Source: a virus
Lineage: Duplodnaviria > Caudoviricetes
DNA: 64,000 nt
Strand: one strand, 5' to 3'
IMG/VR virus record: IMGVR_UViG_3300035101_000015
Coordinates: 64,001 to 128,000 of that record
In this document: piece after piece, positions 25,051 through 25,439 of the stretch
Layout: each line of letters begins with the position of its first letter
How positions within the stretch are numbered: the stretch's first letter is position 1
The notes under the pieces: generated by a model
The model's input: the letters and a program-made list of their open reading frames with translations, nothing else
Told to the model about the DNA's origin: nothing
The model's database searches: none
Made by a program: the position numbers and the translations under genes

Positions 25051-25170
25051 CCAGGGGTAGCTCAGTGGTTAGAGCTCTTTCCTCTCTGCAGCTACTTGTC
25101 TTCCAGACCGAAAGTGGAGAGTTTTCGTCTCACAAACGAGAGGTCGTTGGTTCGAGTCCAACCCCCTGGA
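25051..25170 (+). ncRNA. tRNA-like RNA (anticodon CAC) with Y-RNA module inserted in the anticodon stem
   Basis: CCAGGGG/CCCCTGG acceptor, TAGCTCAGTGGTTAGAGC D arm, GTTGG-TTCGAGT-CCAAC T arm; insert ~25079-25125. Confidence 0.8.
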
Positions 25171-25176
25171 CCTCAT

Positions 25177-25303
25177 GGAGTGTGTAGCTCAATGGCAGAG
25201 CACGGTAAAATTTCCCTCTGCAACACTTGTCCACCCCCGGACCGAAGTTGAGGGTTATCGGTTGCTAACCCCGGGGTTACGGGTTCGAGTCCCGTCGCAC
25301 TCC
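25177..25303 (+). ncRNA. tRNA-like RNA (anticodon GCT) with Y-RNA module inserted in the anticodon stem
   Basis: GAGTGTG/CGCACTC acceptor, D and T arms intact; insert 25206-25259 splits the CGG|GG strand that pairs with CCCCG. Confidence 0.8.
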
Positions 25304-25308
25304 CTCAT

Positions 25309-25439
25309 GGAACGTGTAGCTCAGCCAGGTAGAGCAGCGGTATCCAGATTCCCTATGCAGAACTTGTCCGAGAGGACCGACGTATAGGGTTATCATTCAG
25401 CACCGCTGGTCACGGGTTCAAATCCCGTCGCGTTCCCCA
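25309..25439 (+). ncRNA. tRNA-like RNA with Y-RNA module in the anticodon loop; encoded CCA
   Basis: GAACGTG/CGCGTTC acceptor, GCGGT/ACCGC anticodon stem, insert 25342-25394, CCA at 25437-25439. Confidence 0.8.

Follow-up and report, generated by a model that had tools for sequence, protein, structure and literature searches.

YrlA (RF02553) is described as a circularly permuted tRNA whose acceptor is closed and which has neither a free CCA end nor an anticodon loop (10.1101/312249). In Mycobacterium smegmatis, RNase P opens the 7-base-pair (bp) acceptor of this RNA and CA is added, giving a CCA end in vivo, and such opening with gain of CCA is known for the M. smegmatis YrlA only (PMC4201824). 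The Ro60 of one phage binds Y-like RNAs that are themselves phage-encoded (PMC12135203). Here we analyze a window of 64,000 nucleotides (nt), corresponding to bases 64001-128000 of the 145.8-kb uncultured virus record IMGVR_UViG_3300035101_000015, in which an array of three RNA units, named U1, U2 and U3, lies 3' of the Ro60 gene (rsr). Like YrlA, these units are encoded beside rsr and place a bulged helix of the Ro60-binding type on a tRNA-like body, of which the D and T arms are conserved. YrlA, however, ends in the Ro60 helix, has its T arm before its D arm and keeps the acceptor as a closed loop, whereas the units described here end at the acceptor, follow the order D arm, Y arm, T arm, and have the Ro60-type helix closed by a loop. 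The processed YrlA of M. smegmatis resembles them in joining a tRNA-like body with a free CCA end to a Ro60-binding stem, but it consists of two RNA pieces held together by pairing, while each unit here would be a single chain, with several per array. Yrn1 of Deinococcus radiodurans (RF01053) also has the D-to-T order, but its Ro60 helix stands in for the acceptor stem and not, as here, for the anticodon arm.

Outside the Y RNAs, a hairpin placed in the anticodon arm of engineered tRNA scaffolds is processed and stabilized by the tRNA machinery, and tmRNA and the tRNA-like structures of plant viruses retain a chargeable CCA end; the scaffolds, however, are laboratory constructs, tmRNA and the viral structures serve other functions, and none of them carries a Ro60-binding module. 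We found no description of Y RNAs in tRNA order in the literature searched, although a review may mention them. An existing family with this topology, which the first-pass annotation of the window had named as grounds against its own proposal, was likewise not found, and the published Y RNA models do not describe the tRNA-order form. We consider it likely that U1 to U3 are YrlA-type Y RNAs whose parts follow the ordinary order of a tRNA, and that they act as Ro60 partners released by tRNA-processing enzymes. Such tRNA-order Y RNAs are a widespread class beside the Ro60 genes of phages and bacteria and not the peculiarity of one phage.

Three tandem cloverleaves carry a Ro60-type arm

The first-pass annotation had proposed, from the letters alone, three tandem cloverleaves linked by CTCAT spacers, and these are indeed present 3' of the Ro60 gene (Table 1), separated by spacers of 6 and 5 nt that each contain CUCAU. 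Every unit is predicted to form a 7-bp acceptor stem, extended by a pair between positions -1 and 73, together with a standard D arm and T arm, and between the D arm and the variable loop it carries a closed hairpin of about 50 nt. This hairpin comprises, in order, a CUUGUC-type 3' half, a loop of 4-6 nt and a GACCGA-type 5' half, which are the two halves of the Ro60-binding helix of Y RNAs in reversed order, and the reversal claimed in the annotation could be seen in U1, U2 and U3 alike. In the predicted architecture, one closed arm bearing a bulged helix of the Ro60-docking type is added to a complete tRNA body whose acceptor end is open; each unit runs from the acceptor 5' strand through the D arm, Y arm and T arm to the acceptor 3' strand and does not present the YrlA topology. 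The bulged helix with its wobble is found in all three units. The family consensus agrees with the GNCGAA(N)G motif of bacterial Y RNAs, and although the first G of this motif is A in U1-U3, the change is compensated, the corresponding pair being A:U and not G:C in 8 of the 32 and 17 of the 64 units of the two alignments described below.

The acceptor strands pair at 7/7 positions inside each unit, and at 3/7 (U1-U2) and 5/7 (U2-U3) across units. Since the published YrlA register needs cross-unit acceptor pairing, it fits the window poorly. In a search with Rfam models, which had been suggested as a check, the tRNA model (RF00005) accepts U3 with 49 bits against a cut-off of 29 and a 58-nt insert. 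RF02553 yields only partial matches of 22.7 and 32.6 bits, below its gathering score of 69, each extending from one unit's T arm into the D arm of the following unit. ARAGORN called none of U1, U2 and U3 as a tRNA. Folded as a single sequence, U3 yields the full cloverleaf plus the arm (z-score -4.46). A blastn search of the array against 50,697 phage records returned no match.

The design recurs beside Ro60 genes in phages and bacteria

Related phage loci were gathered by Ro60 homology with an alignment of three proteins, which gave 80 rsr loci and was required because a scan of viral contigs with a single-protein Ro60 pattern gave no match. Two motif scans of viral contigs revealed the same design in unrelated phages (L003, L007 and L048); the L048 unit lies just upstream of that phage's own Ro60 gene, and in the L003 record Ro60 is 48 kb off. 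A scan of the 80 phage loci for tRNA frames with long inserts added about 30 further units, and several units stand inside phage tRNA clusters, as in L003. RNAalifold detected in 28 phage units a covarying acceptor (8 pairs, the -1:73 pair included), D stem and T stem; MAFFT plus RNAalifold recovered only the tRNA stems and not the Y arm. With a covariance model whose structure was set by hand and followed by realignment (R1), and which had seen the units of the window, full-length units of at least 118 nt were found in 25 of the 80 phage rsr loci with 64-108 bits, ordinary tRNAs reaching at most 60 bits.

Of the pair cells in the alignment that the model made of 32 phage units, 92.9% are paired, compared with 39-48% when the partners are slid, and the corresponding value for 64 bacterial units is 95.5%; with partners slid by 1-3 columns, pairing falls in phages and bacteria together to just 38-52% of cells. 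The covariation observed was reached by 0 of 500 shuffles, and compensatory changes occur in all six helices. The covariation in related phages that the annotation had asked for is therefore seen, as the six helices covary across the 32 phage units. The U.G wobble of the Ro-type helix is retained in 28/32 phage and 61/64 bacterial units while the pairs that flank it covary.

A pattern scan of 185,579 species genomes identified 55 bacterial loci, mostly from cyanobacteria (Nostoc, Anabaena cylindrica, Scytonema hofmanni, Calothrix and Acaryochloris marina) and also from Sorangium, a Deinococcus, Chloroflexota, Armatimonadota and Planctomycetota. R1 detects in them 103 long units, in arrays of one to five, and rsr is within the examined stretch at 40 of the 55 loci, usually directly downstream of the units. 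In Nostocales loci (L258, L231, L217, L218, L225 and others), arrays of up to five units stand just upstream of rsr, and in Acaryochloris marina MBIC11017 units occupy the corresponding place (L252 1317-1580). Across three whole genomes, five of the six long R1 matches are at the rsr locus, and the sixth, in Sorangium, is unplaced. Many relatives score 40-57 bits with the Rfam tRNA model, every one with a large insert, and RF02553 gave no match of at least 69 bits in the 15 phage and 12 bacterial loci scanned with it. A second covariance model, R2, was built from the 64 bacterial units only, and on the 64-kb window it finds exactly U1, U2 and U3 (98, 92 and 86 bits; E-values 5e-22 to 5e-19).

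Sequence marks of tRNA-type ends

The pair between positions -1 and 73 covaries among the 32 phage units (G:C in 19, U:A in 6 and U:G in 2), and units having G-1:C73 show T at -2 in 17/19 phage and 38/43 bacterial cases. RNase P cuts tRNA-His one position early, and T at -2 together with G-1:C73 fits such a cut. The CCA, or A followed by CCA, is encoded in 44 of 103 bacterial units, directly after position 73 in 27 of them and as A+CCA after an 8-bp stem in the other 17, and in 4 of 32 phage units, of which U3 is one. In many cyanobacterial units an 8-bp acceptor is followed by A and an encoded CCA, so that the stack of acceptor and T stem is one pair longer than in ordinary tRNAs. Acceptor pairing in the bacteria averages 6.94/7 within units and 5.1/7 across them. 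The first and last units of arrays are complete frames, and 35 of 64 locus-strand groupings hold a single detected unit. Because a CCA would be pointless in a closing loop, the encoded CCA speaks for tRNA-type ends, and the -1 pair, the T at -2 and the frequency of encoded CCA together point to real ends of this type.

These marks bear directly on the alternative that canonical YrlAs are read across the unit junctions, the tRNA frames being a by-product of tandem repetition. A YrlA of this make-up would take its 5' half and T arm from unit n, close its acceptor-like stem with the spacer, and take its D arm and 3' half from unit n+1. The sub-threshold Rfam matches in the window lie exactly at such junctions (25271-25343 with 32.6 bits and 25140-25203 with 22.7 bits), full-length matches of 37-40 bits run across units in Nostoc and Xenococcaceae, the energies of the Y-arm duplexes across units are close to the within-unit values, acceptors pair at 6/7 or better across 20 of 37 bacterial neighbors, and the phage Cashline has true canonical YrlAs in tandem. 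The gathering score of 69 bits is nevertheless never reached, the acceptors of the window pair across units at just 3/7 and 5/7, the units at array ends are complete tRNA frames with more than half of the groupings holding one detected unit, and neither the encoded CCA nor the conserved T at -2 would have a role in a closing loop, which makes a cross-junction origin highly unlikely.

Two classes of unit and the anticodon arm

The units fall into two classes, which often occur within one array. In class S (73 units, U1 and U2 among them), the anticodon stem-loop is complete but its 5' strand is interrupted by the arm, which departs after nt 28 in 55 of the 73 units (range nt 27 to 31). The rest of the stem and a 7-nt loop come after the arm; the 5-bp stem so formed is perfect, position 33 is U in 70/73 units and position 37 is a purine in 68/73. 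As a control for loop length, a perfect split stem is obtained at length 7 in 67 of 135 units and at the other lengths from 4 to 11 in 0-7 units. The triplet at 34-36 is free, with 37 different triplets among the 73 units, and the related units L157a and L159a, which have similar acceptor stems and the same site upstream of rsr, carry different ones. In class U (40 units, among them U3), the arm substitutes for the loop on an intact 5-bp stem, leaving no anticodon loop. The claim that removal of the insert restores an anticodon arm consequently held for U1 and U2, where excision of 47 and 54 nt, respectively, restores a 5-bp stem and 7-nt loop as it does in the 67 units of the control, but was trivial for U3, since the stem of this unit is intact and its supposed 7-nt loop is the mere end of a 12-nt junction strand.

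An anticodon arm of this quality raises the alternative of real decoding tRNAs (Val-CAC, Ser-GCU and, for U3, an opal-reading UCA) with an intron-like or caging Y module that is removed or tolerated. The perfect stem, 7-nt loop, U33 and purine 37 of class S, the few ordinary tRNA genes in this phage record and the presence of several units within phage tRNA clusters would suit it. A decoding identity, that is, a conserved anticodon matching the identity elements of the acceptor, nevertheless fails across the 73 class S units: the triplet is not conserved, even between L157a and L159a, and G-1:C73, the mark of tRNA-His, is present in 36 of the 73 and none of them has a His anticodon. Moreover, U2 combines a Ser triplet with a variable loop of 5 nt only, class U lacks any anticodon loop, and the insertion point shifts between nt 27 and 31. 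The stop codon of rsr is TGA, so an opal-reading tRNA is not expected. The inserts match no Rfam intron family, although no dedicated scan for bulge-helix-bulge motifs was made, and we know of no bacterial enzyme that removes such an insert. Decoding is accordingly very improbable, and the caged-tRNA or intron idea of the annotation is disfavored by the free triplet, by the missing His anticodons and by class U.

A different possibility keeps the same architecture and makes the tRNA body an active bait that would be charged, perhaps by HisRS acting through G-1:C73-CCA, or would be cleaved by nucleases with which the host targets tRNAs, so that Ro60 would be brought to, or would shield against, a tRNA-directed host defense. 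G-1:C73 followed by CCA is the acceptor configuration of bacterial tRNA-His, and G-1:C73 stands directly before CCA in U3, L048, L172 and several bacterial units; the generic geometry of the anticodon loop is retained while the triplet drifts, and the neighbors in the window include a Pth2-like hydrolase and two odd tRNAs. Ro60 genes are also found within RNA-repair contexts in jumbo phages (PMC7824862). A His-like end is not general, however, because in many units A and CCA come after an 8-bp stem, or position -1 is unpaired; Pth2 and the other neighbors are not conserved across loci, and charging and cleavage are conjectures from the sequence. We thus regard it as unlikely, though less so than the two alternatives above, that the free and often His-like end (G-1:C73-CCA) of tRNA-order Y RNAs is put to use, by aminoacylation or by other uptake into tRNA-handling machines, while they are tethered to Ro60. 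If true, phages and bacteria would possess a ribonucleoprotein that baits, senses or counters processes directed at tRNAs, for example anticodon nucleases, tRNA repair or ribosome-linked quality control.

Relation to published Y RNAs

In the cultured actinophages Catera, Cashline and SM23, the same parts, with the split anticodon-like hairpin among them, recur in the order published for YrlA, namely 5' half, anticodon-like hairpin, T arm, closed acceptor, D arm and 3' half. As these canonical-order YrlAs share their parts with the tRNA-order units, each form is a true permutant of the other. The proposal that U1 to U3 are circular permutants of YrlA with free acceptor ends therefore gained support, from the actinophage order as well as from the 7/7 pairing of acceptors within units, the -1:73 pair, the T at -2 and the CCA. 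The YrlAs of the Mycobacterium phage Catera (L211 2680-2870) and the Gordonia phage Cashline (L210 2690-2960) have a split 5-bp stem with a 7-nt loop, which is drawn as a variable arm in the literature but may be what remains of an anticodon arm. The two YrlAs of Cashline stand in tandem and have acceptors closed by tetraloops, and an R1 match of 65 bits in this phage is a cross-register reading of these two. No tRNA-order unit was found in the seven cultured phage rsr loci scanned (Cashline, Catera, BlueNGold, TunaTartare, Jay2Jay, SM23 and Atu_ph07).

The YrlA search of 2014 used a T-acceptor-D model and discarded matches over tandem tRNAs (PMC4201824), and it reported few cyanobacterial YrlAs, some with "longer acceptor stems" (PMC4201824). 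In Nostoc and Xenococcaceae arrays, RF02553 gives full-length matches of 37-40 bits that straddle two neighboring units, and because the model behaves in this way some published cyanobacterial YrlAs may be cross-unit readings.

In a genome that exactly matches the published probe for D. radiodurans Yrn1 (L273 3736-4251, minus strand), three R1 matches lie between Yrn1 (RF01053, 163 bits) and rsr. They are weaker, at 27-56 bits; one has no D arm and one has no U at position 55 of the T loop, a residue that the published Rsr-associated RNA a lacks too. To judge from their sequences, the three elements are probably the Rsr-associated RNAs a, b and d, in which case experimental evidence for discrete RNAs of this class already exists. 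In the metagenome-assembled genome of another Deinococcus sp., a Ro-type module followed by a T arm (L246 4392-4569) stands between two tRNA-order units, and a Yrn1 homologue (RF01053, 84 bits) lies upstream, so that one locus mixes several Y RNA topologies, as does that of this phage.

Genomic context of the array

The array begins 55 nt 3' of the stop codon of rsr, whose product has TROVE and vWA domains and whose translation start is probably inside the longest open reading frame, downstream of its 5' end. From rsr onwards the order is a hairpin, Y0, U1, U2, U3, Y4 and a terminal hairpin. Y0 is a small hairpin that resembles a Y RNA and has its parts in the usual order (5' half, loop region, 3' half), folding at -28.1 kcal/mol with a z-score of -3.74, and Y4 is a stand-alone module in reversed order (3' half, internal hairpin, 5' half), with weak folding support (z-score -1.71); neither has a tRNA body. 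The last hairpin, long and rich in G+C and followed by a short T run, is a probable end of the array transcript according to its predicted fold, and a simple terminator scan missed it because its loop exceeds 8.

On the opposite strand, a gene for a Pth2-like peptidyl-tRNA hydrolase adjoins a pair of tRNA genes (52.8 and 55.9 bits) that have 9-nt anticodon loops with the common core CUAAAG and that ARAGORN assigns to Phe by the rare anticodon AAA. This phage record contains hardly any ordinary tRNA genes. Just upstream of rsr are an open reading frame with weak MoxR-like AAA similarity and one for a DUF2201 metallopeptidase/VWA protein. The Pth2, MoxR-like AAA and VWA proteins were not conserved beside rsr at the other loci compared, and for this reason the idea of a larger conserved gene system around rsr was dropped.

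Table 1. Features of the rsr locus, in positions of the window. Both strands of each stem are given, separated by a slash.
Feature	Coordinates	Strand	Parts	Evidence
MoxR-like AAA and DUF2201 metallopeptidase/VWA open reading frames	20152-22775	+		
rsr (Ro60/Rsr), longest open reading frame	23076-24923	+		Pfam TROVE E 8e-44; vWA_Ro60 E 4e-55
Y0, small Y RNA-like hairpin	24978-25044	+	5' half, loop region, 3' half	Read from sequence
U1, class S tRNA-order Y RNA	25050-25172	+	Cloverleaf with position -1, 25050-25170; acceptor 25050-57 / 25163-70 (T-1:A73); D stem 25060-63 / 25072-75; insert 25079-25125 (47 nt); anticodon stem 25077-78 + 25126-28 with 25136-40; 7-nt loop 25129-35, triplet CAC; Y arm 25082-25121, upper stem 25082-89 / 25114-21, Ro-type helix 25096-101 / 25105-111; T stem 25146-50 / 25158-62; encoded CC 25171-72	R1 98.4 bits; R2 98.1 bits, E 5.5e-22
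U2, class S	25177-25303	+	Cloverleaf with position -1, 25177-25303; acceptor 25177-84 / 25296-303 (G-1:C73); D stem 25187-90 / 25198-201; insert 25206-25259 (54 nt); anticodon stem 25203-05 + 25260-61 with 25269-73; loop 25262-68, triplet GCU; Y arm 25213-25254, Ro-type helix 25227-32 / 25239-45; T stem 25279-83 / 25291-95	R2 91.5 bits, E 2.2e-20
U3, class U	25309-25439	+	Cloverleaf with position -1, 25309-25436; acceptor 25309-16 / 25429-36 (G-1:C73); D stem 25319-22 / 25332-35; intact 5-bp anticodon stem 25337-41 / 25402-06; Y arm 25351-25389 replacing the loop, Ro-type helix 25364-69 / 25374-80; T stem 25412-16 / 25424-28; encoded CCA 25437-39	R2 85.9 bits; Rfam tRNA 49 bits
Y4, stand-alone module	25440-25500	+	3' half, internal hairpin, 5' half	Read from sequence
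Long G+C-rich hairpin, then short T run	25508-25575	+		Last helix of the 606-nt minimum free energy fold
Pth2-like peptidyl-tRNA hydrolase gene	25587-25943	-		
Two adjacent tRNA genes	26019-26171	-		52.8 and 55.9 bits

Proposed pathway and biological meaning

From the architecture, its conservation, its association with rsr and the marks of tRNA ends in the sequence, we infer a pathway in which the array would be transcribed with rsr or just after it, RNase P would cleave ahead of position -1 in every unit, and the 3' ends would be trimmed and completed to CCA, as published for the YrlA of M. smegmatis. The products would be stable RNAs of about 125 nt whose Y arm docks onto the ring of phage Ro60, while the tRNA body, as in other Y RNAs, would serve as a handle for a tRNA-recognizing partner or would gate Ro60. 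The tRNA frame may also offer ready punctuation, together with stability, for several Ro60 partner RNAs per transcript.

Several points weigh against this picture of released, tRNA-order Ro60 partners. The RNA ends, abundance and Ro60 binding in this phage are deduced from the DNA. The cross-unit acceptor pairing of at least 6/7 in 20 of 37 adjacent bacterial unit pairs makes a YrlA register possible there, and the single-sequence folds of U1 and U2 are unexceptional (z-scores -1.9 and -1.1). The metazoan Y RNA model of Rfam has no match at the locus, Y0 included. On the side of method, the training rows of R2 were chosen with R1, which had seen the units of the window, model-made alignments are biased toward the structure to which they were fitted, and pattern scans reach only the units that have the conserved motif.

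Y RNAs with a tRNA-like domain have so far been known only in permuted form, without a free CCA end. A widespread form with true tRNA ends, often with a full anticodon-like arm, would mean that RNase P, the CCA-adding enzyme and perhaps synthetases act on Ro60 partner RNAs far more generally than the single case of M. smegmatis suggested. It may also be a reason for the sparse record of cyanobacterial YrlAs, as the standard model spans two units and drops below threshold. The tRNA-order units would moreover illustrate, in present-day genomes, how YrlA could have arisen from transcripts of tandem tRNAs, as has been proposed; a shift of the transcript ends would convert one of the two forms into the other. 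Carriers that can be cultured include Acaryochloris marina MBIC11017, Anabaena cylindrica UHCC 0172 and Scytonema hofmanni UTEX 2349, along with the weaker matches in the presumed D. radiodurans genome, and in such carriers the role of the tRNA-like domain becomes directly testable.
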